DNA of 64,000 bases from a virus (IMGVR_UViG_3300013426_000014:205323-269322); one strand, 5' to 3'. Positions 17,103 through 59,484 are shown, counted from the stretch's first letter. The notes: a model not told the origin generated them from the letters alone. Numbers and translations: made by a program.

Positions 17103-17103
17103 C

Positions 17104-34904: not shown

Positions 34905-34940
34905 AGAGCGGATATTTATCTTTACCGCTTTATTTATCAG

Positions 34941-37346: not shown

Positions 37347-37907
37347 TTATCTGTCAAAAATCGGATAATCATTTTTCCACTCGCCACATCTCTTTCCTAT
37401 ATGCCGAACAGGAATTTTATGATTATATGCAGCTGTCAACGCCGTACGCAAAGTCGGTATGATGAATACATTATCCGGAATATCTGAATTTGATAAGCTT
37501 CCCTGACCGTCAGCGATCATCAACGACATTGAATATATATTATTTGTTACGGCCGAATTTTTGATGGCTTTCATCTTTTCTGGTCGCGGACGATAAAAAT
37601 AATTAGTCTTGAATTTATCACACGGCGGCAGGTTTCTGACTAATCTCGCGAATTCAGGCGGCACGCACGCGAATGCGGTATAAATAGAGTCTTTATACGT
37701 ATACATATCAATATACGGCCTGTCATCGACAGGTGGAATGCCGACCGTATTTCTTGCAGTCAGCGGACCGGATCCAATGCGGAAATCATTGTGGAAATCA
37801 TCCGATCCGGTTTCAGCGATAATGTTTTTCACATTATTCATAATCGCGTTAATGTTCCTCACATTATTCATAATGGTGTCAACGCTCTGTCTCATCCCAA
37901 AACTCAT
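37347..37907 (-). CDS. Hypothetical protein
   Basis: ORF; short internal repeat IMNNV.NI. Confidence 0.6.
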   Translation of the reverse strand: MSFGMRQSVDTIMNNVRNINAIMNNVKNIIAETGSDDFHNDFRIGSGPLTARNTVGIPPVDDRPYIDMYTYKDSIYTAFACVPPEFARLVRNLPPCDKFKTNYFYRPRPEKMKAIKNSAVTNNIYSMSLMIADGQGSLSNSDIPDNVFIIPTLRTALTAAYNHKIPVRHIGKRCGEWKNDYPIFDR

Positions 37908-38118
37908 TGCATTCGCCTTTCGCGTTTGTCCGGTCCATCATATAGACATATTCATCCCCGTCGACAAGCGACCGCACATACATGAGATATCGATGACACA
38001 ATTTGGTCTTTTGACATCCCATTCCCGCGCACAATGTTATATCGCGACAACCATTCGGCAATTCTTCTATATGCCGTCCGGTCATCGCGAAAACCTTATC
38101 GTCTGATATACGTTCCAT
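37879..38118 (-). CDS. Small Cys-rich phage protein
   Basis: DITLC...C.....CHRY...C..FW. Confidence 0.65.
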   Translation of the reverse strand: MERISDDKVFAMTGRHIEELPNGCRDITLCAGMGCQKTKLCHRYLMYVRSLVDGDEYVYMMDRTNAKGECNEFWDETER

Positions 38119-44268: not shown

Positions 44269-44595
44269 CTATTCTGGTTTTTTATAGCCGCTCAAATTGC
44301 ATATCCATGACGTAATCAATGCCGGGTTGTATCCTTTGCACATGCTACATCCGTTGCACGTCGTACGATGCAAAGCGACATCCGCCGACGTCTTGATGAT
44401 CATCCCGTCAAGGATCCTGTCGATTTTCATGCACGTCTGTCTGTACCCGCTTGACGATACGATGAAATTGTCGTAGCAACACCACGGCGGCGCCGGCATT
44501 TTTATAAGCTGATAATCGCCGTTGGCGCCGAGAATCCGTTCATGCATGACCGTTATCATGTCGTTCTTATAATGAATCGAATCGCAGTTTTTCAT
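44269..44595 (-). CDS. PxWC-family protein
   Basis: PPWC...C...CNGC...GYN. Confidence 0.65.
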   Translation of the reverse strand: MKNCDSIHYKNDMITVMHERILGANGDYQLIKMPAPPWCCYDNFIVSSSGYRQTCMKIDRILDGMIIKTSADVALHRTTCNGCSMCKGYNPALITSWICNLSGYKKPE

Positions 44596-44608
44596 ATCAA
44601 TTTTCGGT

Positions 44609-45034
44609 TTATATGAACATCATCCCGCCATGCTGTATTATAGTTTGCCGCATCTTGTCGTTGTCTTTCACGATGAACAGATTGTTGGCTTTGACGGCCG
44701 GACTTATGTTATATCCGGTTTTACACATGCACCGGACGCACATTCCAGGATACATCACTGACTTGCACATGCCGATGATCCGCCGGCCGCGGCCAACCGC
44801 CGCGGCGATTATCCCGCGGGGCGCCGGCCGCTCCGCGGAGCAGTACGGATATGAGTTATGCATCCAGCCAGTGTCACACCACACCGGAAAACAGTAGTCG
44901 ACGCCATTGCATCGGTCAAACAATATATAATGTTTGCGATCATCCGATTTCATGACGTCATAAATTACTTTGAGATCATGATCTGTCGGTATCTCTTTTG
45001 TCTTCTTCACCATGATATCACCATTAAATTTCAC
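44609..45034 (-). CDS. PxWC-family protein
   Basis: PVWC...YPYC...CVRCMCKTGYN. Confidence 0.7.
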   Translation of the reverse strand: MKFNGDIMVKKTKEIPTDHDLKVIYDVMKSDDRKHYILFDRCNGVDYCFPVWCDTGWMHNSYPYCSAERPAPRGIIAAAVGRGRRIIGMCKSVMYPGMCVRCMCKTGYNISPAVKANNLFIVKDNDKMRQTIIQHGGMMFI

Positions 45035-45494
45035 CGCTCCGCATCCTTCTCCACGGGAAAACGGTCATGTTGAAATGATCGCTCCATGGTTTCGTCCGCC
45101 GCATGTATTCGACAAGCCCGCACAAAGTGATAGATCCTTCGCGGACCATCGTCCTGTTCCATTTACACATGTCGTGCAGCATGTCGGCGGCGTGCATACT
45201 GTGCCGCGACCTGTACCACCTACAGAACCTGCACCGGCCGGTCCGTCTCGCCGAGCCGGGCGTCATGTTCTCCATCTTGAACGGCGAACATTTCGAGTCA
45301 CCGTACTCGTCCGACTCCGCGCGCGGCGCGCACCATTCCGGACGCAGGACCATTGCGTCCGTGTACGGATCGGTGTCAACCACGACCCGCGCGCCGGCGG
45401 CGTTCCTGCCTTTTATCCCGGTCATGACGATGTCACCGGGTTTCGGATCAGACCGACGGATGGCCTCCGCGGTTTTCGCGTATATAATTTTCAT
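45024..45494 (-). CDS. PxWC-family protein
   Basis: PEWC...C...CRFC. Confidence 0.7.
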   Translation of the reverse strand: MKIIYAKTAEAIRRSDPKPGDIVMTGIKGRNAAGARVVVDTDPYTDAMVLRPEWCAPRAESDEYGDSKCSPFKMENMTPGSARRTGRCRFCRWYRSRHSMHAADMLHDMCKWNRTMVREGSITLCGLVEYMRRTKPWSDHFNMTVFPWRRMRSGEI

Positions 45495-46054
45495 TACTTT
45501 TCTTTATATGTACACTTCCAAAAACACGCGTTTGGATTCATTTTGCTTTCGGTTTTGCCCATTGTGCACAAGAATTCGTAATCAGCGTTAATCATGTCGC
45601 GCATCCGGTTTATGCCGAGCAAATTTCCCTTTGAACCCCTTGACAGTTTATGCGCGTGCCGTATGATGTTCAGCATATACGCGCCCTTGTATACGCCGCC
45701 GACACACATGACGCAATCCACACATTCCGCGTATCTCGCGTTGTCGTTTATCTTGCAGACATCCGTCCGGCCCATGTCGACCGCCGTGTCGAACGGGGCG
45801 GGCATCGTGTCGCTGAATATCTGCCGGCACCAGCCGTCGGGCGGAACCGCCCCGGAATCGTGAAACCTGTGCGCGCACCATTCAGGGACGTTCCTGTACG
45901 GAGCGAACGACAGCGTATCGTCCCACGCGCATCGCGTGACCGTGCCCATGCCGAGACGCCGCCTCCCCCGTGTGTTTATGTTCACGACGGCCGCTTTCCG
46001 CTCGATCTCGTTCACCGGCAACATGAACAGCGCGTCATCTGATCCCTTCGTCAT
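45494..46054 (-). CDS. PxWC-family protein
   Basis: PEWC...C...RYAECVDC...GGVYKG, as in 20495. Confidence 0.7.
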   Translation of the reverse strand: MTKGSDDALFMLPVNEIERKAAVVNINTRGRRRLGMGTVTRCAWDDTLSFAPYRNVPEWCAHRFHDSGAVPPDGWCRQIFSDTMPAPFDTAVDMGRTDVCKINDNARYAECVDCVMCVGGVYKGAYMLNIIRHAHKLSRGSKGNLLGINRMRDMINADYEFLCTMGKTESKMNPNACFWKCTYKEK

Positions 46055-46668
46055 ACCGCATGGTTTTTGTAAAGTCTCTGTGGTCTCCACGCGTCCCGGG
46101 ATCCGGTCAACGTCTCGTAAAGCACCGTCGGTATGAGTCTCGTGTCACACATATCGCGCCACTTCATACGCTCAAGCGCCGGGCGCGGGATATTCATGTA
46201 AACGTTTATGGCATGAAACATCGACTGGACTATAAGGTTATAGTTTCTTCTGTTGTTCAACGGACAGCGCATGCAGCGCGTGTACCGCACCGGCGCGCGG
46301 TCCTCCAGACATCCGTCGAGATATGAGTAAAGATGCGCCGCCGTCTTTTCCTGACTTCCGGCGCCGGAATTTCCATGCGCCTCCGCCTTGTGATCCGATA
46401 TGAATCTCGACTCGCCCTTAATCGCGCGGCAGACTTGCGGCGCGGAACGCGGCCGTACGGCGTCGCACCATTCCGGGACGGAACGGACCGGCACCATATC
46501 CGAGCTGAACGCAGTGTACCTGTCCAACACGTACGGATTCGTTATCGATCTCGACCTGAATCCGGCGCGGCGCCGTCCGCGGACCGCCGACACGACCGGG
46601 TCGTAACCGTTATACTCGACCCGCTCCGTCATCTGATCCACCGGGCCGTATGTTGTATTATCAATCAT
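46051..46668 (-). CDS. PxWC-family protein
   Basis: PEWC...C...RYTRCMRC...NYN. Confidence 0.7.
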   Translation of the reverse strand: MIDNTTYGPVDQMTERVEYNGYDPVVSAVRGRRRAGFRSRSITNPYVLDRYTAFSSDMVPVRSVPEWCDAVRPRSAPQVCRAIKGESRFISDHKAEAHGNSGAGSQEKTAAHLYSYLDGCLEDRAPVRYTRCMRCPLNNRRNYNLIVQSMFHAINVYMNIPRPALERMKWRDMCDTRLIPTVLYETLTGSRDAWRPQRLYKNHAV

Positions 46669-46727
46669 GCAGCGAATATAGCGATAAAAAACGTAAATTA
46701 AAAGCGGAACGTGAAATTTTTTCGTTC

Positions 46728-47297
46728 CTATATTTTCCTGCCGCGCCGCCACATGGCCGACGAAATAAAATCGACGACATACTCCGGCCACGACACGTCG
46801 CCGTACTTATCACCGGGATCGCGCTCTACACGATACATGTCATATAATGAGCTGTAATGTGACAGCAAATCCCGGACGGACAGGTTGTAGTTCCTGTTCA
46901 GCCCGCATCGCATGCATTTCTCCGATATCCGGGCGGGGATAATCCCGCTGCGGAAAACCGGTTTGAACCCGTCCGCGTACGCGGCGTCGAACGCCATCAT
47001 GCTGCACACGTGCCGCCCGTCGAACGCCGCGTGCAGATGTCCGTAATCCCGGGAGTCGAGCCCGTCCAGCGCCTTGCACCACTCCGGCACCCACGCGCAC
47101 AAACATTTCTCGGCCGGACCCATTATGACCGGAACGGATCCGTAACCCGGCCGGCGCCGTCCCCTGACCCGCCGGATTCTTTCCGCGGCGGCGTCAGGGT
47201 CGGGACATCCGGTCCACATCACGGACCGGACGAACGGGACAGCCGACGCCGCCGTGTCGTTCATGTTCGCGGTGGTGATCCTTTTCAATACTATCAT
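46728..47297 (-). CDS. PxWC-family protein
   Basis: RGRRRPGYGS; PEWC; CMRC..NRNYN. Confidence 0.7.
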   Translation of the reverse strand: MIVLKRITTANMNDTAASAVPFVRSVMWTGCPDPDAAAERIRRVRGRRRPGYGSVPVIMGPAEKCLCAWVPEWCKALDGLDSRDYGHLHAAFDGRHVCSMMAFDAAYADGFKPVFRSGIIPARISEKCMRCGLNRNYNLSVRDLLSHYSSLYDMYRVERDPGDKYGDVSWPEYVVDFISSAMWRRGRKI

Positions 47298-47722
47298 TGC
47301 CCCGTCCTTTTGTTGTTTATTATGTCCATCGCCGTCCTTCTGACCCTGTGGACTTCAATTTCCGCCGCGGCGCGCCTGGCCTTCGCCATCACCGCCGTGT
47401 TATAACCGGATTTCATCGCGCATCCGCAGCAGAACGCAGCATGCAGCCGGACGCTCTCGCACATGTTCGAATTCATGACGAACTTCTGCTCGACGCCGGC
47501 CGGCGGCTCGTGGTGCATGGCATAACCGCCCGCGCCGAGCGCGCGCCATACGTGAATGATCCTGTCGCACCGCCGGCCGGGCGGAGTGAGCGTGTCTTTC
47601 GACGTCAGCTTGCACCAGACAGGCGGCGGGACCGACCCCGGACCATACAGCGCGCCGAAACGGAAACGGACGGCGTCGTCCGTCGTGTATACAGCTGTCG
47701 TATGTTTCTTATTATATCTCAT
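47294..47722 (-). CDS. PxWC-family protein
   Basis: PVWC...C...CCGC..KSGYN. Confidence 0.7.
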   Translation of the reverse strand: MRYNKKHTTAVYTTDDAVRFRFGALYGPGSVPPPVWCKLTSKDTLTPPGRRCDRIIHVWRALGAGGYAMHHEPPAGVEQKFVMNSNMCESVRLHAAFCCGCAMKSGYNTAVMAKARRAAAEIEVHRVRRTAMDIINNKRTGQ

Positions 47723-47734
47723 ATCAAATCAATA

Positions 47735-48124
47735 TCATCGCACAGGCATACCGCGGCGTCCGCGCCGTGCCGCGGCGCGTTCCAAATCCCGCCTTCTGAA
47801 GAACGACATCAGTCCGATGTTATACCCGCGCTTGTACCTGCATACCACGCATGACGACGGGTAAAGCACCATGTCATGCATGCCGCGCATATCCGCCGCG
47901 GCCGCGATTTCGTCCGGGATCCGCCGGTAGGCGGCCGCCGGACAGAACGGATAAGGCGCCGGTGATCCCGCGATGATCCGTCCGCCGTCGCACCACGCCG
48001 GAACCGACGCCGAACCGTTCCACATGTCACACATGTCAGCGCAGACAAAATGCCGCCTCGCGGTGTTTTCCGGCAGGGAACCGTCGAGAAACCCGGCGGT
48101 GATGCTCGTGAACCCGTCAATCAT
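47735..48124 (-). CDS. PxWC-family protein
   Basis: PAWC...YPFC...CVVC.YKRGYN. Confidence 0.7.
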   Translation of the reverse strand: MIDGFTSITAGFLDGSLPENTARRHFVCADMCDMWNGSASVPAWCDGGRIIAGSPAPYPFCPAAAYRRIPDEIAAAADMRGMHDMVLYPSSCVVCRYKRGYNIGLMSFFRRRDLERAAARRGRRGMPVR

Positions 48125-48641
48125 CTGCCGTCAAGTTTTTCGAGATCCTCCACCCGTCGAACAGGAACGGCTCTATCTGCCGCGGCCAATCCGGCACGCC
48201 GTCCGTGAACTTGTCGGCATGCTGGGACCAAAAACGCTCCACTTGCCGGAACCGTCCCCGAAGCTCCATATACCCGCCGACGTTCTTGTACGCGCCGCGG
48301 CAAAAGTCGCAGCCCTTCCGTATACAGTCGGTGTATCTGCATCCGCAGGACGAAGGGTCCAGAGCGGACTCCTTCATAATACAGTCACATGACAAGGCGG
48401 TCCTGCTCCCCATTATCCGGTCCGGGACCGGATCCTGACGGAAGAATAAGCACCATTCTGGAAAATTTCTGTACACGATATCGCCGTCCGCGTCCTGGAC
48501 CGCCCTTGTGCCGGAGCCGTAACCGGGGCGGCGTCTTCCTTTCCGCGCGGTGATCACGCTGATCTTCTTCTCCTTGAGCTGCCGGCGGGCGCGCTCAACA
48601 AGTTCCTCCGCCGGTATCTTGTATTGTGATGTTCCCTCCAT
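48117..48641 (-). CDS. PxWC-family protein
   Basis: KGRRRPGYGS; PEWC; RYTDC...GAYK. Confidence 0.7.
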   Translation of the reverse strand: MEGTSQYKIPAEELVERARRQLKEKKISVITARKGRRRPGYGSGTRAVQDADGDIVYRNFPEWCLFFRQDPVPDRIMGSRTALSCDCIMKESALDPSSCGCRYTDCIRKGCDFCRGAYKNVGGYMELRGRFRQVERFWSQHADKFTDGVPDWPRQIEPFLFDGWRISKNLTADD

Positions 48642-48660
48642 TCTGAAAGTAAATTTACGA

Positions 48661-49167
48661 TTATACAGGTTCCGCGGAACGGACGTGCCGTCTGATGTTA
48701 TACATCCGTCCCACCATATCTCGCACGGAGTCTGTCCCGCCGAAATAATATTTCATATCGGACGCGGTCTTCAGGTTATACAGCCGGCTCGCCTTGCACC
48801 GGAGACAGCCCCTGACAGGGGACGCGCCGGAATTCGGCCGGCCGTCCCCTGACATGCTGTACATATCGTTCTCCGCGGCGATCTCCGGACAGGTGTATAT
48901 GACGGCGCCGTTGTATTCGCGGAGCAGCTGGTCGTCCTTCAACCGGCACCATTCCGGCGTCAGTATCGTCTTGACCCGGACGTACATCCCGCATGGCAGC
49001 GCGGCATTCCGGTCCATCTCGTCATAGCTGAAATACACCGCGTCCGTGATCGCCGTCCGTCTGCCCGGCGCGGTCCTGCCTTTCATCATGGTCAGCTCCG
49101 AGAGCCGTGAGAGCCGCCTGACCGCCTCGCGTTCGGCGTCCCGATTTGTTTCGCATACCGTCGTCAT
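48661..49167 (-). CDS. PxWC-family protein
   Basis: PEWC...C...CLRC...LYN. Confidence 0.7.
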   Translation of the reverse strand: MTTVCETNRDAEREAVRRLSRLSELTMMKGRTAPGRRTAITDAVYFSYDEMDRNAALPCGMYVRVKTILTPEWCRLKDDQLLREYNGAVIYTCPEIAAENDMYSMSGDGRPNSGASPVRGCLRCKASRLYNLKTASDMKYYFGGTDSVRDMVGRMYNIRRHVRSAEPV

Positions 49168-49179
49168 ATAATCCGCATC

Positions 49180-49545
49180 CTAACCCCCGAACTCGACCGG
49201 GTATTTCGCGAACAGCCGCGCCGCGCGCCACCGGACCGACGTGTTGTACCCGTTCCTTTTCTCGCACGACATGCAGCGGATGTACGATCCTTCCGTCGCC
49301 CGCCCGCCCTGCCGCGCGGATGATGTGGTGCCGGCGATCATACGGACGAGCATGTCGCAGTGGAAGCGGACAGGCCAGCCGCCGTCAATGTCGTCAAAGA
49401 ATCGGTCATGACACCACACGGGAAGCCGGCCGTACCGGCACCATCTCTCCTGCAAGCCGACCTTGACCGCCGGGTCGTGATATGTCCGCGTCCTTATGAC
49501 GCGGCCTTCGAATTCATTCATTTCCTTCATGATCATTTTATGCAA
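49180..49545 (-). CDS. PxWC-family protein
   Basis: PVWC...C...CMSC...GYN. Confidence 0.7.
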   Translation of the reverse strand: MHKMIMKEMNEFEGRVIRTRTYHDPAVKVGLQERWCRYGRLPVWCHDRFFDDIDGGWPVRFHCDMLVRMIAGTTSSARQGGRATEGSYIRCMSCEKRNGYNTSVRWRAARLFAKYPVEFGG

Positions 49546-49972
49546 GCCGGCCCGCGGGGATTCCCCGCCGCCATTTCCTTCCGAACATCACCATATCCGC
49601 GCCCGCGGGTTTGAACACGCCCGGCGGCAGGGGTCTGATGAACGCCGAACCCGACGAGCCGAACCCCCTGCCGTAGAAATCCATATCCCACATCCGCCGG
49701 CACGCGACCATGTTATAGACGCTGTAGAACCGGCAGAACTTACACCTGACGCACTGGCGGGGCGTCACGTAACAGAACGCGTCCGTTCCGTTCTCGTCGT
49801 ACAGGGCCATGCAGTCATACACGGGGGCGGAAACACGGTCCGCCGTCACCGGCCGCCCGTTCGAACACCATTCCGGGACCGTGATCGTATTCCCGGCGCC
49901 GGTTCTCATCCGTATGAGTCTCCTTCCCGCCGCCGACCGTCCCGGCTCTCGTATGATCTCAATTATATTCAT
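49538..49972 (-). CDS. PxWC-family protein, first in operon
   Basis: PEWC...C...CVRC; promoter 49977. Confidence 0.7.
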   Translation of the reverse strand: MNIIEIIREPGRSAAGRRLIRMRTGAGNTITVPEWCSNGRPVTADRVSAPVYDCMALYDENGTDAFCYVTPRQCVRCKFCRFYSVYNMVACRRMWDMDFYGRGFGSSGSAFIRPLPPGVFKPAGADMVMFGRKWRRGIPAGRLA

Positions 49973-50053
49973 GACGCAAATATAATAAAATTCCGGGAAA
50001 CATGGAAACGTTTCCCGGGATTTTTTTAGCGTTTGTTTTGCTTCCCCGCCGGT

Positions 50054-51196
50054 TTACCTTACCGTGTTCGCGACTGTCACGGCGCGGAGGACCGCGGCCT
50101 TGTTATACGACATCATCTCGATGATAATCCCCTCCCCGCACGAGCAGTCGTCAGCTATCAATTCGGCCAGCCCGTTATATTTTCCGGACCCCGGCGCGCC
50201 GATGTTCACCATCTCCGTCTGCCGATTCGCGCCACTCGCTCTGTCCTTCGCCACGTCCGGCGACATAAGCGCAATCTGCCCGCCGATCTCGCGCCGGACG
50301 CCGTCGCCGAACAGCGGGACGCATCTGCCGTCGTCATCCCACGGCAGAACACGCGTCCCGCACAGTAACAGGGAATTGCCGATCCGCCGCGGCGCGCCCT
50401 TCGCCGACGTCAATGAGCTGCAACATGAGAAATCGGCGAAGTCGCGGACGACATCCGGCGATCCCGTCAGGTCGTTGACCTCTGTCCGCCATGCGGCGCC
50501 GCCGGCTGACGTATGTGACACGAACCTCGCGACACCGAAGTCGTCACACTCCCGCGGCGCGCCCTCAAACGACCGCAGTGGACGGAATCCGGATTCCGGG
50601 CCGGCCGGATCATAGTAGAATATATAATACGGCTTCTCGCGCGGCGGCGCCGGAACGATCATATAACTCCCGTCCACGTACGACGGCGACCCGACGAGCG
50701 TCCCGTCCGCGCGCGGCATCGCGTACACCCAGAAGCTGCTGCTGTTATGATTTATCCCGTCAGGATAAACCGGGACAATCGCGTACTCGTGTATATTCGC
50801 CGGGATCTTGTCGAGATCCAGTATGACGCCGGTGAAGCCGCCGCGGACCGTGACATACACACAGAACATGTCATCCGTCCTGTCGAACCGTATCCTGTGA
50901 CCGAACATGTTCCCGCGCCGCCGGATTGACGTCGACATGTTACAATCTGAATCAAAATAATAACATACCGCCGGGACGAGCGACCGTTCGAATTCGGCCA
51001 TCTCCACGGCGGCCTGATCCATGTCGCCGAACGTGTCCGTGTAGTCGACGTCGGACATGTCCGAAAAGTCGAACCCCTCGCGTATTGCCGCGCCGACAGA
51101 TGTCCGCGCGTCCGCGTCCCATATGTATGTGTCTGTCATGCGGTCCGCCATGATATTCGTCATGTCCTGTGTTTTGTTTGTTACAGCCGCGGCCAT
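50054..51196 (-). CDS. FD-motif family LRR-like protein
   Basis: IREGFDFSDMSDVDYTDTF; GSP/GAP repeats. Confidence 0.85.
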   Translation of the reverse strand: MAAAVTNKTQDMTNIMADRMTDTYIWDADARTSVGAAIREGFDFSDMSDVDYTDTFGDMDQAAVEMAEFERSLVPAVCYYFDSDCNMSTSIRRRGNMFGHRIRFDRTDDMFCVYVTVRGGFTGVILDLDKIPANIHEYAIVPVYPDGINHNSSSFWVYAMPRADGTLVGSPSYVDGSYMIVPAPPREKPYYIFYYDPAGPESGFRPLRSFEGAPRECDDFGVARFVSHTSAGGAAWRTEVNDLTGSPDVVRDFADFSCCSSLTSAKGAPRRIGNSLLLCGTRVLPWDDDGRCVPLFGDGVRREIGGQIALMSPDVAKDRASGANRQTEMVNIGAPGSGKYNGLAELIADDCSCGEGIIIEMMSYNKAAVLRAVTVANTVR

Positions 51197-51651
51197 TTGA
51201 TCACCTCTTGCACATTTTTTATTCCGTCGACGGAGGACGGCGCGCCTAATGTGTCGTCATAATTTTTCGTGATGATCTTGACGCAAACACAGCCGGACCG
51301 CGATTTTATCCGCCACGGGACGCCGTACTTCTCTGTGAACCGCCTCAGCCCGCCGGCGCCGTCCTTTAGCAGGACACTGCAGTACAGGACCGTGATCCAT
51401 CGGTCCATGGAGAGGACCTTGTCCGCGTCCCACGTCATGATCCGGCCGGCGTCGGGATCGTCGTCCATGCTGATCAGATCCGACGATCCGACGTCGATCC
51501 GGTCCGCCAGCGCCGCGTTCGTGATCCGCATGTCACGCCGGAGCGCGTCCGCGAAAGCCGACACCATCTCCGCGTTCTCGTCAATACTGGAAAATGTATC
51601 AGTGTAGTCGACGTCCGACATGCCGGATAAATCAATTTTCTCGTTTAACAT
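51181..51651 (-). CDS. FD-motif family short protein, paralog of 4270
   Basis: LNEKIDLSGMSDVDYTDTF; ALRRDM.ITN; TWDA.KV. Confidence 0.85.
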   Translation of the reverse strand: MLNEKIDLSGMSDVDYTDTFSSIDENAEMVSAFADALRRDMRITNAALADRIDVGSSDLISMDDDPDAGRIMTWDADKVLSMDRWITVLYCSVLLKDGAGGLRRFTEKYGVPWRIKSRSGCVCVKIITKNYDDTLGAPSSVDGIKNVQEVIKWPRL

Positions 51652-51676
51652 TTATAAAAACCGAATAATTTTAATC

Positions 51677-54640
51677 TTATACCAGCCCGTTCATCACGCA
51701 CAGCCATTTCGCGCACGCGGCCGCGTCGCCGTACACCGTCACGCGCGCCCGGGCGGCGGACAGATCCGGGAACATCATGCCGTACAGTCCCTGCGGCCAG
51801 TTCCGCGGGGAGCCGGAGCCCAGCCACATGGACGACGACTCCGACTTCCGCCGGCCGGCGACGTTCGCGCCCGGATGCGGGACGTCGACTTTGATCTCGC
51901 CGCACCGCCGGGACACCCCGTCCGTGAACGCCGGCACGACGTTCCCCTTGCCGTCCCACAGGAACGACGTCGTCGGACGCTGCATCTTCCTCGCATCCGG
52001 GAACGTCACGGTGAAGTTGTTGCCGACCCGTTCCGGCGCGCCGTCGAGGAAGCCCGGGCCGTAAGCGAGTCTCGGACCCGGTGCCTCCATCACGCATTCG
52101 ATGTTGCCGGTGACCTCCTTCGGCGCGCCGGCAAGCGACCTGCAGACAGACGGCCTGAGGCCGATGACGTCCGTCAGGCTCCCGTACACGCCGGCGTTCA
52201 CGTCGCCGCCGACGAATTCGGGCGAGCCGATCAGCGAGCCGAAACGCTTGCCTGTTCCCGGCCCGGCCGGCAGTATGAACAGCTGGCATTTCGTTATGCC
52301 CGGCCCGGGCTCGAGCCGCCAGCGAGCGGACTTCGACCATGACGCCGGCGCCGCCTTGAGATCCAGCGCCGCCTCGGCGATCCTGCCGTCAGACGGGGCC
52401 GCGAACGCCGGTGTGTCGAACATCGAGGTCGTCATGACGCCCGGCGCGTCGGACAGCGTGACCGTCCATCCGTCCGCGGACGAGCCGGACACCGCGCGGG
52501 CGAACAGCGGGTCGAGGACGGGGTCGGACCCCCTGACCCACCCGTTCTTCCCGGCGGACGTGCGGACCTGCAAAAGGAGCGCCTTCCGGAGGCCGGCGGT
52601 GAACGCAGACTTCTCCGCCGCGGCCTGGTCCATGTCGCTGAAAGTATCCGTGTAGTCGACGTCGGACATGTCTGAGAAGTCGAAGCCCTCCGACACGGCT
52701 TTCCGCCGGGACGGTTTTCCGTCCTTTCCGGACGGCTCAGCCGGCCGCGTGTCGATACATATGAGACCGGACGGGGCGTCAATCCCTTTCATCGCGTTCA
52801 TGTAAACCGTCCTTCAGTATGACGTCGACGCGTCGGCGATCCCGGCTTCTTTTCATCTGTCCTTTCCGGCGGTGACGGTGAAAACACGGAATTTCCCGTT
52901 CTTCTCGCGTACCACGCGCGGCAGCGTGCGATCGGCGGACCTGACGTTCACATTGCCGCCGACACGCGCCCGGCCGGGCGCCGGGAGGATCCTCTCGCAC
53001 GCGCCGTCCCGGCCGGCCCGCGGGGCCGCGATGACGCCGGCCACATCGAGGTCGCCGCCGATGAACGCCGGCAGTCCGGACATGAAGTCCGGACCCTTCT
53101 GCCGCGAGCTGTTATTCGGGTCATATATGTACCTGAACTCCAGCGTCACCGACCCGTCGACATACTCCGGCGCGCCGGCGAGCGACGTCAGGGAGTCTGA
53201 CTCGACATAGAGCGACGCGCCGAGGTCCAGCCTCCGCGGAGCGCCGGACATCGACTTCACCGCCGAGTTGACACGCACGTCAATGCCGGCCACCTCCGCC
53301 GGCGCGCCGTGAAGGTCCCCCGCCGCCGACGGGTTGAGCGTGATCGTGACGTCGTCGATCAGGGCGGTTACATCGCCGACGACCCCTCCGTTATCGAACA
53401 CCCGTCCCGCTTTCAGCGACCATCCCCCGTACGCGTCGGCCAGCCGGGCGAACCCGCCGCGGGACAGATCGATCCCGATATTGATCTCGTACGGCGCGTA
53501 CTCGGCGCCGTTCAGATCGACGTCGAGCCTGACGATCACATTGCCGCCGCCGTCGCGACTGAGCGGGTCGCCGTTGTCGTCCCGTGCCGTGAGGATCACC
53601 TTGACGTCGATGTCGGCGTCATCGCGAAGATCGCTGCCATAGTTGATCATATCCGATTCGCACGCCTTCTCCACCGCGACACACGGCCCCTCGCGGTCGT
53701 CGATATCGCTCAGCGTGTCGGTGTAGTCGACATCGGACCTGTCAGAGAAGTCGAATCCCTCATTAATCCCGCCGCTCCCGCCGCGGCGTTTCATATGGTC
53801 GCGCGACGCCTTCTGATAGCACGGATCTCACTGCGTGCTGTCTAAATAATCGGCAGGCAGTTCGCCATGTATGTCGCTGAGCGACCGGATCTCCCGCGGG
53901 ACAAGATTCGCCGGGAAAAGATCCGCGCAATCCGCCCCGCCTGTGATCACATACAGCCTGATATCGGTCGGCGCCGGCGCGCCGAACTGATCGCCGATGT
54001 CAATCAGCGATCACGTCATTCATTTCGGAAGGCGGTCCACCGTCCATCGATTGAACGACGCGCCGTACATCGCGGCGATCGCGCGCCGCATTGACGACCG
54101 CGCGGCGGCAGACCGGAAATCCATGATGAGCGGGAACGAATCCCATGATGTCAACGTCTTCACCTCGTCGGTGATGAAGAACCTGATCCCCCAATTGTCA
54201 CGTGGAAGGGAATAAGTCGACGTCGTCATCCATATGGACTGTTTGCTCTTAATTTGGCGGCCGGCCGGCGAGAGCGGCGTCATCGTCAGGCCGGGCGCGC
54301 GGGAGATCATCTCGGCGGCGCTTGCCGCCGTCATCAGTTCGACCCGCCCGGACGACTGGATGAACATCGGATCGAACACCGGACTGTCACATCTTATCCA
54401 CTTGACATGTTTCGGCACATACATACCGCCGGCATTCAACGCCACGCCGGCGTCAGACACCCGCACCCGGGATATCCGCCGCATCCATTTAATGAAAAAT
54501 TCAGGCGCGGCGCGGTATTGCATATCATTGTCATCCATGTCAGACAATGTGTCGGTATAATCGACATCGGACATGTCCGAGAAGTCGAAATCCTCGTTGA
54601 TCTCCCGTCTTCATCCGTGTGTTTTATTACAAGCGTCCAT
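51677..54640 (-). CDS. Three FD-motif units in one frame: 987-aa polyprotein if TGA=Trp, otherwise ORFs 54020-54574, 52853-53794 and 51677-52801
   Basis: Only TGA (54611, 54020, 54011, 53828, 52853, 52814) between ATG 54640 and TAA 51677. Confidence 0.75.
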
Positions 54641-54766
54641 AATAATTTTGTTCTTTTCTTTTTTACCGTTATATAGTAAAAATGAATAACGTAGATATAA
54701 TTATTTAACACGCAAAAAGACGGGCGATTTCATGTCCCGCCCGTCTTTCCTTTCGATGATGCAGTC

Positions 54767-55960
54767 TTACTGCTTCGACAATTTGTCGGACAACTGGATG
54801 AGCATGTTCAGCCCCATCGCGTCCATCGCGGTGCCGCCGGCGTTTCCGGATGATCCGGTCGACACGATCCTCGGCAGCGCGACCTTTGACATCGCCTCCG
54901 CGACGCCGACCCGGGTTTTGTACTCCCACTCGGCCCTCTCCTGCGGGGTGAGGCCGGCCGCGACCTTGAGCCTGTTCGCCTCCGCCTCGGCCTGGCCCTC
55001 GGCGATTATCTTCTTCTTGTCGAACTCTGCCTTCTCAGCGGCGAGCCTTGACACCTCGCGCTCCTGTTCGGCCTTGGTGACGGCGACGGCCTTCGCCTTC
55101 TCCTGCTCCCACCGCGCCCTCGCGGCCGCTGCCTTTCCCTCCTCCTCGGCGCGGATCGACTCCTGCTGGGCGGCGGCGGACTTGGCCTTGCTGGTCTGAA
55201 TGAGCATATTCGCCTCCTGCTGCTGGGCTATCTGGTTGTTGACCTGGTCGGAATATCCTATCTTAGAAATGGAAACCTGCCCTATCTCGAGCCCGTAATA
55301 TCGGAACGGTGACGACTCTGATCTCTTATAGCCGCCCGGGCTGTCCGGGTCCGGGACGAGATCCGCGACCTTCGTCTGCTTCTTCTCGCCGGTGACGGGA
55401 TCCTCCGTCTCGACGACGCGGACGGTGGTCTTGTAGACGCCGTTATTGAGCTGGTCTGTTATGTAGTATATAAGATCGTTCTTTTTCTCCGCGTAGGACT
55501 CGAACGCCGACATGAGCGGTCCGGACGCGTAGATGACCTTGTTGACGGTCTGCTTCACCAGGTCGGTCATGAGCCTGTCCATCCCGTTGTAGTCTGTCTG
55601 TATCCTGGCGAGGTGTTCGACGTCGGTCGGCAGTTTGACCCTGAGCGACCCGTATATGGCGCCGTCGGACGCGTCGTTGAATATCACCTGTATGGGCGAC
55701 CCGATCTGCTCGCCGTTCCCGTCGGACGACCCGAACCACAGCTGCTGCGTCTTGTAATACCTGGTGACGTCGCCGAATCCCTGCCACTTGACGCCGGGCG
55801 TGGTCCAGTAGACCATGCGGCCGGTGAACGGGTACTGGTTGACGACGATCTCCTCGTTCTTCACGTTCTCCCCGAGCTTGCCGACCATGGTCAGGCCGAT
55901 GAGGAGGACGACGCCGAGAATGAGCACGGCGATTTTCTTTGGTGAAACTTTCACTGACAT
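54767..55960 (-). CDS. SPFH/Band 7 membrane protein
   Basis: N-terminal TM, SPFH-like core, Ala/Glu coiled coil; terminator 54714-54750. Confidence 0.8.
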   Translation of the reverse strand: MSVKVSPKKIAVLILGVVLLIGLTMVGKLGENVKNEEIVVNQYPFTGRMVYWTTPGVKWQGFGDVTRYYKTQQLWFGSSDGNGEQIGSPIQVIFNDASDGAIYGSLRVKLPTDVEHLARIQTDYNGMDRLMTDLVKQTVNKVIYASGPLMSAFESYAEKKNDLIYYITDQLNNGVYKTTVRVVETEDPVTGEKKQTKVADLVPDPDSPGGYKRSESSPFRYYGLEIGQVSISKIGYSDQVNNQIAQQQEANMLIQTSKAKSAAAQQESIRAEEEGKAAAARARWEQEKAKAVAVTKAEQEREVSRLAAEKAEFDKKKIIAEGQAEAEANRLKVAAGLTPQERAEWEYKTRVGVAEAMSKVALPRIVSTGSSGNAGGTAMDAMGLNMLIQLSDKLSKQ

Positions 55961-56057
55961 TCTTTTCTTCTGGTTAAAAATGTTGAACAAAAATGAAAAC
56001 AAAAATGAAAGGGGCGGGCGGAAAATCCCGCCCTTTCGCAAGGTGATCCGCCGGGCG

Positions 56058-56336
56058 TTACTCAGACGCCGGCATCTTTTTTCTTTTCCGTTTCGGGACG
56101 GACGCGGTCGTGTCGTCCACCGCCGCCGGTTCCCTCTCCGGCGCCTTGTCCCTGACGGCGTCTTCCTTCCGTGACGGATTCCCGGACGCGAACAGCCCGG
56201 CGAACGGGATCAGCGCGGACCATGACGAGAACCTCTCCCCGTCCGCGTCGACGATCCCGAACATCGCGAGCGCGACGTAACCGTAATACAGAAGCGCGCA
56301 CAGGATGACGGCGCCGATTATGAGCCTGAACACCAT
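56058..56336 (-). CDS. Small membrane protein
   Basis: Hydrophobic N-terminus; WSALIPF. Confidence 0.65.
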   Translation of the reverse strand: MVFRLIIGAVILCALLYYGYVALAMFGIVDADGERFSSWSALIPFAGLFASGNPSRKEDAVRDKAPEREPAAVDDTTASVPKRKRKKMPASE

Positions 56337-56340
56337 ACCG

Positions 56341-57297
56341 CTAGTCCTCCTTGAAAGGGTTGAGCTCAACGGTGTTCGTGTCGACGCCTATCGCCGACCC
56401 CGGCAGCACCTCGTAGAACCAGTCCTCGTCCGGGCCGTAATCCAGACGGGCGAGCTCCGGGTAGGCGGAGTCGATCCAGTCCTCGATCATGCAGGCGGCG
56501 GCGTCGGCCTCGGTGTCGTCGCCGAAGAACCTGCTGTCGTCCTCGGCCGGCAGGGACGCCGGGCGGCGGAAATCCGGGATCAGGATGTCGTGCAGGTAAT
56601 GCACGCCGTGGTCCAGGTAGAGCGGGTTCGGCGTGTGCATCGCCGGGTCCGTGTAGTAGTCCGGGTCCAGTTTCTCGCAGCCGGACGGGTTGACGGTGAT
56701 CATCAGCACCGCCGGGACGGACGGATAGGACGGGACGGACACCTCGCGGGCCGCGGCCTTCTCCGTCAGGACGAGATGGCTGTCCGGCGCGGGCGGATTC
56801 TCCGCGGCCGGGAGCTCGGTCTCGATGCCGAGATCTATCGGCTCCTCGCGGTCATCGTCCTCGCTCACGCCGGCCAGCGCGCTGATGAACGCCTTCGCGA
56901 CATCGCTGACGAGATCGGCGACGGTGTACTCCTCATCGGCGTTTCCGTCATCATCCCGCTTTTTCACGTCGTCGGAGTTGGCGCGCCTGCCGTTCTCCGC
57001 GTTATAGCGGACCTGCCCCTCGTTGTATTCGGCGTCCGCGGCGTCCGCGGCGGTGTGGACCGACGTCAGCGTCTCGCCGGCGCCGAACTCGATCCTGTCC
57101 TTGAACAGCGACGCCACCGGGACGGCGACGTTCTGGACGTCGGTGTCGAACAGCACAAGCGCGTTATTGGCGTCCGGCTTGACTTCGGTCACGTGGCCGA
57201 GCCTGATCGAAGGGACACCCGCCTTGGCGCCGGTCACGAACCAGACCTTGTCGCCGGCCTTCACGTCTTTGAAAATCTTCTTCTTAATGTCTTCCAT
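56341..57297 (-). CDS. Acidic hypothetical protein
   Basis: 318-aa ORF. Confidence 0.7.
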   Translation of the reverse strand: MEDIKKKIFKDVKAGDKVWFVTGAKAGVPSIRLGHVTEVKPDANNALVLFDTDVQNVAVPVASLFKDRIEFGAGETLTSVHTAADAADAEYNEGQVRYNAENGRRANSDDVKKRDDDGNADEEYTVADLVSDVAKAFISALAGVSEDDDREEPIDLGIETELPAAENPPAPDSHLVLTEKAAAREVSVPSYPSVPAVLMITVNPSGCEKLDPDYYTDPAMHTPNPLYLDHGVHYLHDILIPDFRRPASLPAEDDSRFFGDDTEADAAACMIEDWIDSAYPELARLDYGPDEDWFYEVLPGSAIGVDTNTVELNPFKED

Positions 57298-57429
57298 TGT
57301 TTGTGAAAACAGTTTTGTTTGTTTTTGAAAGCTAAAGAGTCATTCGCCGGCCTCCGGGCCGCGGCGTTCAGCCCCCGCGCCGTTTCCGCTCCCGGCGGGC
57401 GCGCGCCGGTTTCGCCACTTGTTATCCCG

Positions 57430-58260
57430 TTAGATGTCGCCGTGCGACTCGAACACCCATCCGTCGGACGTGTCGCCGGAGCAGCTGACCGCGAGCGTCC
57501 CGTCCGGGTATCCGGCGTCCTTCGCCTGCTCCGACATCTTCCTTGCGAGCGCGGCGGAGTCGGGGTTGTCGTCCGCCGCCATGTTCACGTACATGTCCTT
57601 GCTCGTCCTGTATTCCTTCCTTCCCTTCTCGTCGAGCGACCCGTACACCGCGACGCCGACGTCTATCGTCTTCCCGTCCGTCCTGACCCACCTGAAACCG
57701 GGATCGTTGTCCGACACGTCGAGCACCCCGCCGATTTTCAGCGGCAGGCCGTCCAGGCTCTTCAGCCTGTTGTTCCTGCAGCTGCAGTTCCCCCTGACAT
57801 ACTCCGGGAAATCAGTGATCTTCTCGACGTCGGAATCAAACATCCACATCGAGCCGCCGACCTTCTTCGGGAACCCGTTGGTCGACTTCAGGTTCTGCCC
57901 GATGATGTATATGTCCTTCCCGATCTCGCCGAACCTGATGTACGGCGGCAGGTCCCCGTCGGTCCTCAGGCTGATGTGGTTGGCGACGTTGATGACGCCG
58001 CCCTCGGCGATCCACCAGTCCGGCCCGCCCTCGACGCCGATGCCGGCGCCCTCGTACTCCGCGGACTCGTCGAGCCTGTCACAGAACACGCAGTGCGTGT
58101 CCATCCATTCGGTGATCGCCTTGACCTCCTGCTCGGCGTCGTTGTCGGACATCGTGTCGGTCCAGTCGTTCTCGTCCATGTTCGACATGTCGAAGGGCGA
58201 CGTCTGCTCCCCGGTGTCGGGGGTCTCGTTCAAATTAAAATCAAAATTTCTCTCTTCCAT
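57430..58260 (-). CDS. FD-motif family LRR-like protein
   Basis: LNE...FDMSNMDENDWTDTMSD; LKSLDGLP.KIGG repeats. Confidence 0.8.
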   Translation of the reverse strand: MEERNFDFNLNETPDTGEQTSPFDMSNMDENDWTDTMSDNDAEQEVKAITEWMDTHCVFCDRLDESAEYEGAGIGVEGGPDWWIAEGGVINVANHISLRTDGDLPPYIRFGEIGKDIYIIGQNLKSTNGFPKKVGGSMWMFDSDVEKITDFPEYVRGNCSCRNNRLKSLDGLPLKIGGVLDVSDNDPGFRWVRTDGKTIDVGVAVYGSLDEKGRKEYRTSKDMYVNMAADDNPDSAALARKMSEQAKDAGYPDGTLAVSCSGDTSDGWVFESHGDI

Positions 58261-58340
58261 ATTATCTGGCGTTAAAATTCATAACGCGAATATAGCGCTT
58301 TCTTTTCATATACGGAAATATTTCCGGAAAAATTTTTTCG

Positions 58341-58649
58341 CTACCACCTGACGATCGGCCAATACGGATCGTCGTACAGCAGCGGCCCGCGGAAGTCGTC
58401 GTACATCGGCAACGCCGCCCACGCCCTGAACCCGGCGAAGCAGTCCGCCGCCCCGTAAAGCAGTATGGACGCGACGGTGAAGAACACAGCCATGCCGTCA
58501 TAAAAGAAATAAGGGATCCCGCCCGCCATGACGGACCCGGCGTCGAGCGCCGCAAGCGCCGCCGCGATCACCGTCATCGTGTCGGCAAGCATCCGGCCGT
58601 TCGTGTACCGGCCATACATATCGCTGTTACATATTTTCCTTTCACTCAT
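58341..58649 (-). CDS. Small membrane protein
   Basis: Two hydrophobic segments. Confidence 0.5.
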   Translation of the reverse strand: MSERKICNSDMYGRYTNGRMLADTMTVIAAALAALDAGSVMAGGIPYFFYDGMAVFFTVASILLYGAADCFAGFRAWAALPMYDDFRGPLLYDDPYWPIVRW

Positions 58650-58677
58650 AAGCTATTGCTCTGTTTTTCCTGTTCTT

Positions 58678-59484
58678 TTATTGCTGAAATCCGCGCCGCG
58701 CCTTCTCCGCCTCCGCCATTATGTCGCGGCCTGACAGTTCGGACACCCGCTTCACCCACCGGACGACCTTCTTGATAAAATCCGGTGTTTCCCGGTCCGG
58801 GATCCACGTCTGATTCGACGGGTCGTCGCTCTCGCCCGCGGCATCGATGTCGTTCCCGTCGGAAATCCACACCCACTCAGCGGGCGTCTCGTATACGGAA
58901 CATATACCCGGGAAGTCCGCCGCGAGCCCCATCCAGCTCTTACATGAACGCGCGTTCGCGTCCTTCCATTCCGCGACGGCGGCGGCAGCCCGCTCCGCCA
59001 GCGGGACCACGCCGTCCATCATCGACGGATACATCGCGGCCGAGTCCGAATCGTACGGCAGGCCGGTCTTCTCGCATTCCTTCCGGATGGCCGACACCCG
59101 GACGATGACGTCACCCATGCGGATTTCCTGTTCCATCTCGTCCTCGACCGATTTCCGGCGGCGGGCATACCCGTCGATCGACGTCCACGGCAGGGCGGCG
59201 TATCCAGCCTTCCTGACGACGCATCTCCTGACGGTGACGAGCGCCGCGCCCCCGCCGGACGACACGAACGACGCCGGCGACCCGTCCGGGTTGACCCACG
59301 ACACGACGCCGTTGTATATGTCCGGCCTCATCGCGGACGCCCTGTCGGCGCCCTGCCGGACAAGCGCGTTCCTCACCTTGGAGACGTTGCCCCCGCACAT
59401 GTACTCGACGTCGCCGTAAAGATCGACGACATACGACCTTGACGTCGGCTCAATCTCTTTCGCGGATGTTTTCGATACAGCCAT
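58678..59484 (-). CDS. Hypothetical protein
   Basis: 268-aa ORF after promoter 59524. Confidence 0.7.
   Translation of the reverse strand: MAVSKTSAKEIEPTSRSYVVDLYGDVEYMCGGNVSKVRNALVRQGADRASAMRPDIYNGVVSWVNPDGSPASFVSSGGGAALVTVRRCVVRKAGYAALPWTSIDGYARRRKSVEDEMEQEIRMGDVIVRVSAIRKECEKTGLPYDSDSAAMYPSMMDGVVPLAERAAAAVAEWKDANARSCKSWMGLAADFPGICSVYETPAEWVWISDGNDIDAAGESDDPSNQTWIPDRETPDFIKKVVRWVKRVSELSGRDIMAEAEKARRGFQQ

Follow-up and report, generated by a model that had tools for sequence, protein, structure and literature searches.

Organization of the PxWC operon

The window analysed here (64,000 nucleotides) is the terminal 64 kb of a 269,322-bp virus record (IMGVR_UViG_3300013426_000014; gut-type jumbo phage), and all coordinates refer to this window. 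Positions 44269-49972 are occupied, on the minus strand, by 12 paralogous open reading frames that align on invariant P-x-W-C and CxxC...Y motifs (PxWC genes). Their stop codons are TAA (five genes), TAG (three genes) and TGA (four genes). The predicted features are, in the direction of transcription:

49993-50018, minus strand, strong intrinsic-terminator-like hairpin (11-bp stem and T-rich tail) immediately before the operon
49977-49984, minus strand, TATATTTG, which fits the Bacteroidota -7 box TAnnTTTG and lies 4 nt upstream of the gene 1 start codon (ATG)
49538-49972, minus strand, PxWC gene 1, 144 aa, TAA end
49180-49536, minus strand, PxWC gene 2, 118 aa, TAG end
48661-49167, minus strand, PxWC gene 3, 168 aa, TAA end
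48117-48641, minus strand, PxWC gene 4, 174 aa, ending ...LTADD-TGA (48117-48119) within ATGATTGA
47735-48124, minus strand, PxWC gene 5, 129 aa, TGA end (47735-47737)
47294-47722, minus strand, PxWC gene 6, 142 aa, TGA end (47294-47296) in an ATGA overlap with gene 7
46728-47297, minus strand, PxWC gene 7, 189 aa, TAG end
46051-46668, minus strand, PxWC gene 8, 205 aa, TGA end (46051-46053) in an ATGA overlap with gene 9
45494-46054, minus strand, PxWC gene 9, 186 aa, TAA end in a TAATG overlap
45024-45494, minus strand, PxWC gene 10, 156 aa, TAA end
44609-45013, minus strand, PxWC gene 11, 134 aa, TAA end
44269-44595, minus strand, PxWC gene 12, 108 aa, TAG end

The motifs are invariant over 35 PxWC paralogs and orthologs, and the family profile is matched by 37 clusters in a library of 1.84 billion proteins. 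No Pfam or PHROG family was found for the PxWC proteins, and an AlphaFold2 model from the 35-row alignment reached a pLDDT of 57, too low for a fold search; the C-terminal tails range from 20 to 70 aa. The operon genes contain 37 TGG and no in-frame TGA codons (P = 1e-4 at f = 0.22), and in three other lineages the PxWC genes have likewise no in-frame TGA, against 36, 20 and 33 TGG. The neighbouring genes fit the first-pass description of metabolic genes as code-neutral: nrdD, nrdG, SLT, DUF932 and others together have 77 TGG and no TGA, and end in TAA or TAG. Counted by gene, 24 neighbours (nrdD and 23 others) and eight PxWC genes give the same product under both codes. GC content climbs from about 0.44-0.48 to 0.58-0.66 between 45 and 62 kb.

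Terminal TGA codons and predicted read-through

Four of the 12 genes end in TGA, and in three of these the coupling overlaps that the first-pass annotation had attributed to this operon were recovered, of the ATGA or the ATGATTGA type. At 48117-48119 the TGA lies in an 8-nt overlap with the ATG at 48124, and read-through would add 98 codons that overlap the next gene in another frame (coding score -33.8), in agreement with the earlier estimate of about 300 nt. The end at 47735 reads TGA TAT TGA (second TGA at 47729-47731), and two codons later gene 6 begins at an ATG that is in frame with gene 5; the TGA at 47294-47296 directly precedes a TAG at 47291-47293; and read-through past 46051 would add 24 codons (coding score -8.8). 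Two further PxWC paralogs with TGA ends are located in a second array:

18824-19216, plus strand, PxWC paralog, TGA end; read-through would add 38 codons
19237-19677, plus strand, PxWC paralog, ending ...WHKGNISD-TGA; read-through would continue out of frame across the next gene for about 100 codons

The last of these aligns with paralogs that end ...WHKGNGENE-TAA and ...WKAGTNNE-TAG. Coding scores beyond the TGA ends are strongly negative (-33.8, -8.8, -30.9). Elsewhere in the genome, TGA 'ends' are followed by TAA or TAG within eight codons or by empty space of neutral score. The combination of a TGA end, a strongly negative score beyond it and an overlap with the next gene was found in 6 of 19 PxWC genes and in none of about 228 others (Fisher p = 9e-8), as determined with our own crude gene caller and with all positives in the two PxWC arrays. 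Another TGA end that had been reported, at 29957, is real and carries little weight, since a TAA lies three codons on; there, as at 47294 (TGA-TAG), a near-identical protein is obtained under either code. By the criterion of Mgcod (bioRxiv 10.1101/2022.06.29.495998), under which the stops of the two codes in a dual-coded gene are less than 30 nt apart, the genes ending at 48117 (98 additional codons), 47735 (fusion), 46051 (24), 19214 (38) and 19675 (about 100) are not dual-coded. A backup TAA or TAG soon after the terminal TGA is not a consistent feature.

Programmed read-through, or a polyprotein, was considered and rejected: the extensions differ in length and sequence, their scores are negative, and orthologs have a TAA or TAG stop directly after the same residue. 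Genes 5 and 6 are in frame with each other here, but a TAA separates them in one distant locus (L008). The base after sense TGAs is distributed like that after TGG, sense TGAs are evenly spread along genes, and after the six terminal TGAs come C, T, T, C, T and A. In these six terminal cases the following base does not separate the two uses, so sequence context does not appear to account for them.

TGA as a tryptophan codon

Genome-wide codon, stop and density counts were made with our own crude gene caller. By these counts, TGA makes up 246 of 1095 tryptophan codons in called genes (about 22%), at every GC level; coding density rises from 0.82 under code 11 to 0.89 under code 4; and the stops under the TGA-as-sense reading are TAA (178) and TAG (48). 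In the large terminase, residue 264 is encoded by TGA and aligned to W267 of T4 gp17 (3ezk). The longest recoded open reading frames (2,628 and 2,834 aa) contain 12-20 in-frame TGAs each. In a family of paralogs sharing an FD motif, in-frame TGAs stand opposite TGG-encoded tryptophans of the paralogs:

51677-54640, three-unit gene of the FD family, carries in-frame TGAs
60140-61486, gene of the FD family, carries in-frame TGAs
52853-52855, minus strand, in-frame TGA of an FD-family gene, opposite a conserved Trp near the C-termini of the paralogs (aligned by eye)
60572-60574, minus strand, in-frame TGA of the FD paralog at 60140-61486, with a TGG-encoded Trp opposite in a paralog

The TGA at 52853-52855 is a sense use on the operon's own strand, 3 kb upstream of the PxWC operon. 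Searches of Pfam and PHROGs with the recoded open reading frames of 4-26 kb and with the FD genes returned no family. From these alignments and counts, TGA is a tryptophan codon in much of the genome, the terminase included. The dual use of TGA in one genome that had been proposed is supported by tryptophan-encoding TGAs of the terminase and FD genes together with a tRNA(UCA), and by stop-position TGAs of the PxWC genes. As regards annotation, neither translation table 11 nor table 4 by itself calls the genome correctly.

The tRNA was predicted by ARAGORN with introns allowed, and was missed without the intron option:

1538-1903, plus strand, tRNA(UCA), split by a 293-nt intron (1571-1863)

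After splicing it resembles phage tRNA-Trp(CCA) (G1.U72, G73, identical anticodon loop), and it is the likely opal decoder; no group I match was found in Rfam for its intron. Domains of RF-1, PCRF and TrpRS are absent from the record (87% complete by CheckV). The record has neither an RF1, RF2 or TrpRS gene nor a recognised RF2 inhibitor; RF1, an RF2 inhibitor and TrpRS were the factors for which the first-pass annotation had recommended a search.

Comparison among paralogs and lineages

Relatives were identified by searching protein clusters and looking up contigs; neither blastn with the operon as query against a phage collection nor a scan of IMG/VR with a single PxWC protein gave any. One contig (L022) is 100% identical to the window, and the comparison of the second array gained nothing from it. 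All four operon TGAs are kept in L001-L005, which are about 97% identical, a distance at which this has little weight.

The more distant loci (L006-L009, L024 and L025), which may or may not be recoded themselves, were compared gene by gene, and at no fewer than six of 12 gene positions TGA interchanges with TAA or TAG while the last residue stays the same (L006/L007, L008/L009, L024, L025). Gene 2 (TAG here) ends in TGA-TAA in L008 and in TGA in L025. Gene 4 ends ...LTADD-TAA in L008, L009 and L025, and the stop of gene 5 is TAA in L008 and L009. Gene 6 ends in TAA in L008, L006 and L025 and in TGA in L009. Gene 8 retains its TGA in all loci that have the gene, with the ATGA overlap wherever the junction was read (L008, L006, L007, L024). 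Gene 9 has a TGA stop in L006, L007, L025 and L024, and gene 10 has TGA in L007, L008 and L009 and TAG in L025. Among the paralogs, TGA-ended genes stop at the same alignment column as TAA- or TAG-ended ones, with which their C-terminal basic W-R-R-x motif also aligns. L008 and L009 also show a terminal TGA-TAA opposite TGG-TAA, and some terminal TGAs may simply be the last tryptophan codon.

A conserved extension beyond these TGAs, which would speak against their use as stops, had been named as a point to examine; none was met among five related lineages, nor does any PxWC gene there contain a TGA in its interior. In the 297-nt extension past 48117, all four substitutions relative to L004 are non-synonymous in the extension frame, and three of the four are synonymous in the frame of the overlapped gene. 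Over the whole operon, at about 3% DNA divergence, L004 differs by 71 synonymous and 75 non-synonymous codons. The array is found in the same order beside SLT and nrdD in all five other lineages and is thus ancestral to the clade.

Promoter class, transcription units and host

Tryptophan codons were tabulated by promoter class, as had been suggested, with the class limited to genes directly behind a motif, since propagation along transcription units was too crude. Under our own gene calls, genes directly behind a T4-late-like ATAAATA box have 62 TGA and 140 TGG (31% of Trp codons) and those directly behind a TAnnTTTG box have 3 TGA and 52 TGG (5%; p = 4e-5). A partition by region was ruled out by the sense TGAs that occur 2-10 kb upstream of the operon on the same strand. 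A TGA-rich FD gene also starts 6 nt past the second PxWC array, so that any partition could at most follow transcription units. We infer a split into early and late genes from the motifs that resemble promoters, from where the operon lies and from its avoidance of in-frame TGA.

TAnnTTTG boxes are enriched upstream of genes, and nrdD is nearest to crAss-like and Prevotella phage records; together with the TGA-free gene blocks, this hints at a host that uses the standard code. Nothing points to a host that itself uses code 4, the other condition under which the first-pass annotation would have been refuted.

Interpretation

The best reading of these sequence data is that TGA occupies real stop positions in PxWC genes and that there is a standard-code phase; we infer that termination at these TGAs is real and that late suppression is efficient. 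Most genes, especially those behind ATAAATA boxes, would use TGA as one of two tryptophan codons and need the phage tRNA(UCA), and the PxWC operon and the adjoining nucleotide-metabolism block would be written in the standard code of the host, with TGA in the PxWC family as one of three interchangeable stops, often in ATGA-type stop/start overlaps. Early in infection, translation by host ribosomes would end at the PxWC TGAs with the help of the UGA-specific host release factor, RF2, and 12 small Cys-rich proteins would be made separately. At a later time, the tRNA(UCA) would be made, spliced and charged and would outcompete termination, so that TGA in late genes is read as tryptophan at a time when the early operon is no longer needed. 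Two gene classes for TGA, with such an early-stop and late-tryptophan mechanism, appear to us reasonably probable.

Constant read-through is an unlikely, though by no means far-fetched, alternative. The TGAs would mostly be read through, the PxWC genes would be fast-evolving and dispensable, and changes from TAA to TGA would be tolerated stop losses that give harmless tails or fusions, with no standard-code phase that matters. The rapid evolution of the family (71 synonymous and 75 non-synonymous differences from L004), its variable C-terminal tails, the random-looking extensions (0, 24, 38 or 98 codons, or a fusion), the nearby sense TGAs on the same strand, and TGA-TAA opposite TGG-TAA in L008 and L009 all fit it. 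Under a constant code 4, however, internal changes from TGG to TGA would be neutral, yet none is seen against 37 plus about 90 TGG codons, with 22% TGA genome-wide; the TGA of gene 8 is kept everywhere, in an ATGA overlap that is useful only if translation stops there; and the extensions are unconserved with strongly negative scores. We regard it as distinctly improbable that TGA is ambiguous all through infection, with the suppressor tRNA competing with RF2 at each TGA to give both products and no temporal partition. The lack of a phage RF1, RF2 or TrpRS gene and of a recognised RF2 inhibitor, and the similar contexts of sense and terminal TGAs, would agree with this, but proteins with 12-20 TGAs require near-complete suppression (with 90% at each codon, about 12% of the product would still be full-length past 20 TGAs), and the strong split by promoter class and the TGA-free gene blocks argue for two states and not one.

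Recent import of the GC-rich operon segment from a standard-code phage or host, with TGA stops not yet purged, is very improbable: the rise in GC and the lack of TGA stops in the lineage's other early genes (distant relatives L006 and L008 have some) would be expected from it, but all five other lineages carry this array with its gene order unchanged, TGA stops were both gained and lost among lineages, and TGA already encodes tryptophan in the FD genes of this GC-rich segment. That the PxWC genes are chance open frames, and their TGA ends an annotation artefact, is hardly credible; GC-rich DNA is expected to hold long frames in several phases, and the Pfam, PHROG and AlphaFold results gave no support for a protein family, but this reading is already contradicted by conservation, i.e. 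by the motifs invariant in 35 paralogs and orthologs, the clusters matching the profile, the excess of third-position and synonymous changes, and the gene order kept in all five other lineages.

Beyond the early-stop and late-tryptophan reading itself, the PxWC TGA stops might act as a built-in switch and not be a mere remnant, a proposal we hold to be improbable: once tRNA(UCA) is active, read-through would break the stop/start coupling at ATGA-type overlaps. Separate early proteins would then be replaced by extended or fused forms, e.g. of genes 5 and 6, and the code change would shut off or re-shape the early gene set besides unlocking the late genes. The intron-split suppressor tRNA is an obvious candidate for the timer of the code switch, and the junctions at 48117, 47735 and 46051, together with the TGAs of late genes, would be natural reporters of when and how completely UGA changes its meaning.

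Comparison with known systems

Stop codons with two meanings decided by context are known for UGA in Condylostoma and Blastocrithidia, and for selenocysteine UGA with a SECIS element. Like these, the phage would give one codon two meanings in one genome; unlike these, it has no signal in the following base (six terminal cases), its terminal TGAs lie inside a polycistronic operon and not near an mRNA end, and the two uses are split by transcription units and promoter class. The phage shares with code-4 and code-25 organisms (Mycoplasma, Gracilibacteria), and with the phages of these, the predicted decoding of UGA by a tRNA of anticodon UCA and the use of both TGA and TGG for tryptophan. In real code-4 genomes 80-90% of Trp codons are TGA (Mgcod, bioRxiv 10.1101/2022.06.29.495998); here, in contrast, the figure is 22%, whole blocks avoid TGA, and one family has TGA in stop position.

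Borges et al. (bioRxiv 10.1101/2021.08.26.457843) described TGA-recoded gut phages (Agate, Jade and other clades) and proposed a switch from the standard to the alternative code. The present phage resembles these in that Trp-TGAs cluster in late, structural and lysis genes, with early genes free of the recoded codon, and in its suppressor tRNA, its presumed standard-code host and its strong preference for TAA stops. It differs in that the PxWC family keeps TGA stops (four of 12, and two in the second array) that were gained and lost among lineages, in the 293-nt intron of the suppressor tRNA and, relative to Jade, in having no RF1/TrpRS module in this record. For crAss-like phages, code blocks and 'dual-coded' early genes have been described by Yutin et al. 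2021 (PMC7886860) and with Mgcod (bioRxiv 10.1101/2022.06.29.495998), the latter arguing for a 'soft' code switch. As there, reassignment here affects only part of the genome, and another block (nrdD and 23 genes) is code-neutral; unlike dual-coded genes in the sense of Mgcod, at least four PxWC genes would gain 24-98 out-of-frame codons or fuse under code 4.

A stage-partitioned code has thus been proposed before (Borges, 10.1101/2021.08.26.457843; Yutin, PMC7886860; Mgcod, 10.1101/2022.06.29.495998), and in the published view recoded phages begin under the host code and switch later, with early genes that are merely neutral. What would be new here is modest, i.e. a gene set that appears to depend on TGA as a stop and is not code-neutral, in which genes that are correct only with TGA as stop adjoin genes that are correct only with TGA as tryptophan, with comparative data backing both.

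General features of the phage genome

The virus record comprises 269,322 bp and is 87% complete (CheckV); the window covers its final 64 kb. The record stems from a distantly T4-like jumbo phage with a large terminase of the T4 type that bears an intein; a match to the T4 neck protein is weak (below the Pfam cut-off). A total of 33 tRNA genes were found. The closest matches of nrdD are in crAss-like and Prevotella phage records; the window's nrdD encodes 736 aa and no intein, whereas in two distantly related loci, L006 (7351-10770) and L025 (11337 onward), the product is 1,139 aa long and includes an intein and a LAGLIDADG domain (precomputed Pfam, weak). In this stop-codon-recoding genome, a gene for a PTH2-type peptidyl-tRNA hydrolase (16365-16817, plus strand; Pfam PF01981, E = 1.7e-24) lies directly upstream of tRNA-Ser and tRNA-Arg (16934-17103).

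The GC content is 0.58-0.66 at window positions 45000-62000 and genome positions 1-5000, compared with 0.41-0.49 in the first 45 kb of the window; the GC-rich segment contains the PxWC operon and FD-family genes, and also a Band_7/SPFH gene and a TGA-free ORF of 1,455 aa. Coding density is low around the end of the record and the tRNA arrays (window 62000-64000 and 1-4000), with called values of 0.29-0.43 at genome positions 205-210 kb and 265-269 kb.

Reading of TGA as tryptophan

The genome reads TGA as tryptophan. Genes were called with a simple codon-score caller of our own, which is crude and was trained on long code-11 ORFs; the coding density was 0.89 with TGA open versus 0.82 under code 11. 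The longest ORFs (up to 2,834 aa) contain 12-20 in-frame TGAs, and with TGA open nearly all genes end in TAA or TAG. The TGA at terminase residue 264 aligns with W267 of T4 gp17 (PDB 3ezk). TGA represents 246 of the 1095 Trp codons in called genes (22%), and this share is independent of GC content. The sole UGA-decoding tRNA found is the following:

1538-1903, plus strand: tRNA(UCA), predicted by ARAGORN with introns allowed; 293-nt intron after position 33

A default ARAGORN run recovers no more than the 3' half of this gene, which it miscalls as tRNA-Cys(gca) (1832-1903). After splicing, the tRNA has G1.U72, G73 and its anticodon loop in common with the phage tRNA-Trp(CCA); no Rfam group I match was obtained for the intron. 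The first-pass annotation had suggested a search for a phage RF1 or TrpRS, and none came to light: the record, at 87% completeness, contains no RF1, RF2 or TrpRS gene.

There are hints in the sequence that the L006 lineage may also read TGA as tryptophan. A small gene of L006 between nrdG and the next gene (11313-11534) reads F-TGA-DETKL-stop, and its window counterpart (about 37900-38110, minus strand) reads F-TGG-DETER. In the FD family, the five close relatives L001-L005 all lack 1.87 kb of the window (52690-54555, minus strand) and have one 330-aa FD gene at this site; the window segment holds three FD units in a single frame with TGAs as the only separators. Among these TGAs, the one at 52853 faces a Trp of a paralog and the one at 52814 is near the paralogs' stop position.

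The PxWC operon and its TGA ends

Twelve paralogs on the minus strand (44269-49972) share an invariant P-x-W-C, a CxxC...Y(N) motif and a basic W-R-R-x tail; no family match was found for these proteins, and the fold model was poor. The 12 genes end in TAA (five), TAG (three) or TGA (four), the last being:

48117, minus strand: TGA within ATGATTGA; read-through gives 98 codons out of frame
47735, minus strand: TGA-TAT-TGA, then the ATG of the next paralog in the same frame
47294, minus strand: TGA in an ATGA overlap, TAG directly after
46051, minus strand: TGA in an ATGA overlap; 24 more codons on read-through

The coordinates of the TGA ends in the first-pass annotation are correct, as is its out-of-frame run of about 300 nt past 48117; the further terminal TGA that it listed at 29957 is a TGA end, but a nearly code-neutral one, with TAA three codons downstream. 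Two further TGA ends (19214 and 19675) belong to a second, plus-strand PxWC array, one gene of which ends in WHKGNISD-TGA versus WHKGNGENE-TAA and WKAGTNNE-TAG in paralogs. In-frame TGA is absent from the 12 operon genes, against 37 TGG (P = 1e-4 at a 22% share); it is likewise absent from the remaining 24 genes in the minus-strand block at 27-51.6 kb, which contain 77 TGG.

When each ORF was allowed either to stop at TGA or to read through, the coding score beyond PxWC TGA ends was strongly negative (-33.8, -8.8 and -30.9), and among genome-wide calls only the PxWC arrays had TGA ends combining such a score with an overlap of the next gene. For the remaining TGA 'ends', a hard stop follows within 8 codons or the frame continues with neutral score into otherwise empty DNA, as fits read-through. 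Three ATGA stop/start overlaps were called genome-wide, versus 11 TAATG overlaps, and 97 genes start with ATGA; a fourth (47294/47297), where the caller had merged both genes, was found by eye. Only one of the ATGA overlaps lies outside the PxWC arrays.

Stop-codon exchange among relatives

A PxWC profile search against 1.84 billion representatives yielded no more than 37 clusters, and the family is thus confined to this phage clade. Contig look-ups gave five close loci (L001-L005; about 97% identity over the operon), in which all four operon TGAs are kept, and four sets of more distant loci (L006/L007; L008/L009/L010; L025; L024). The array adjoins SLT and nrdD at every locus long enough to show the neighbourhood. 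The stop codons of the distant lineages provide what we regard as decisive sequence evidence on the role of TGA at PxWC ends.

Table. Stop codons of PxWC genes in the window and in more distant lineages
Gene 2: window TAG; TGA in L008 and L025
Gene 4: window ...LTADD-TGA; ...LTADD-TAA in L008, L009 and L025
Gene 5: window TGA; TAA in L008 and L009
Gene 6: window TGA; TAA or TGA in other lineages
Gene 8: window TGA; TGA at every carrying locus, in an ATGA overlap in L008, L006, L007 and L024
Gene 9: window TAA; TGA in L006, L007, L025 and L024
Gene 10: window TAA; TGA in L007, L008 and L009; TAG in L025

The junction of genes 4 and 5 has both stops on the identical three bases, and extensions past PxWC TGAs vary in sequence and length among lineages. 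PxWC genes of other lineages contain no in-frame TGA, versus 36, 20 and 33 TGG. Gene ends at which TGA freely alternates with TAA or TAG, in genes that strictly avoid TGA internally, are the signature of translation with TGA as a stop. In the 297-nt extension past 48117, all four substitutions between the window and L004 are non-synonymous in the extension frame and, read in frame with the overlapped gene, three of the four are synonymous; these small numbers point the same way and would agree with TGA as a stop. In L009 (1929-2000), a premature TAA cuts PxWC gene 2 short; the remaining frame is intact, and the former end of the gene reads TGG-TAA versus TGA-TAA in L008 (1380-1450), a TGA/TGG difference in the last codon.

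Promoter-like motifs and probable timing

The following signals were located:

50018-49993, minus strand: terminator with an 11-bp stem, upstream of the PxWC operon
4 nt ahead of the operon's first ATG, minus strand: TATATTTG box of the TAnnTTTG type
34913-34938 and 59836-59843, minus strand: window examples of (G)ATAAATA

TAnnTTTG is the -7 consensus of Bacteroidota. Candidate hosts lie in Bacteroidales and Prevotella. The top enriched upstream word genome-wide is (G)ATAAATA (about 18-fold, peaking 26-40 nt before start codons), which is similar to the T4 late promoter TATAAATA. Genes directly behind (G)ATAAATA contain 62 TGA and 140 TGG, compared with 3 TGA and 52 TGG behind TAnnTTTG (Fisher p = 4e-5), and the PxWC operon is probably expressed early. 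The gene at 34524-34904, inside the TGA-free block, has two upstream (G)ATAAATA copies and one in-frame TGA.

Stop and sense TGA are not partitioned by region. On the operon's own strand, 2-10 kb upstream of it, FD-family genes behind a late-like box have TGA opposite the Trp of paralogs, and a TGA-rich FD gene begins 6 nt past the second PxWC array. No sequence context was found that separates sense from terminal TGA.

Interpretation

The best reading, which we consider moderately probable, has two phases: at first the standard code would apply and host RF2 would terminate at the TGAs of the PxWC genes, and later TGA would be suppressed. Partial TGA suppression as one constant state is unlikely, since proteins with 12-20 TGAs demand near-complete suppression. 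The main rival, that the PxWC TGA stops are simply read through and tolerated, seems rather improbable to us: in-frame TGA is avoided in the PxWC genes of every lineage sampled, and the gene 8 TGA is kept at every carrying locus. Recent import of the GC-rich segment is also unlikely, since the clade inherited the array from its ancestor and both gains and losses of TGA stops have occurred.

Comparison with known recoded phages

For recoded phages, translation of early genes under the host code and of late genes under the new code has been proposed (Borges et al., 10.1101/2021.08.26.457843; Yutin et al., PMC7886860), and early blocks have been found to be 'dual-coded', with a soft switch being argued for (Mgcod, 10.1101/2022.06.29.495998). 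The present phage is of the same kind; in contrast to the 'dual-coded' early blocks, however, its PxWC family is not code-neutral. What is added to the known picture is such a non-code-neutral gene family, with comparative proof of its TGAs as stop positions.
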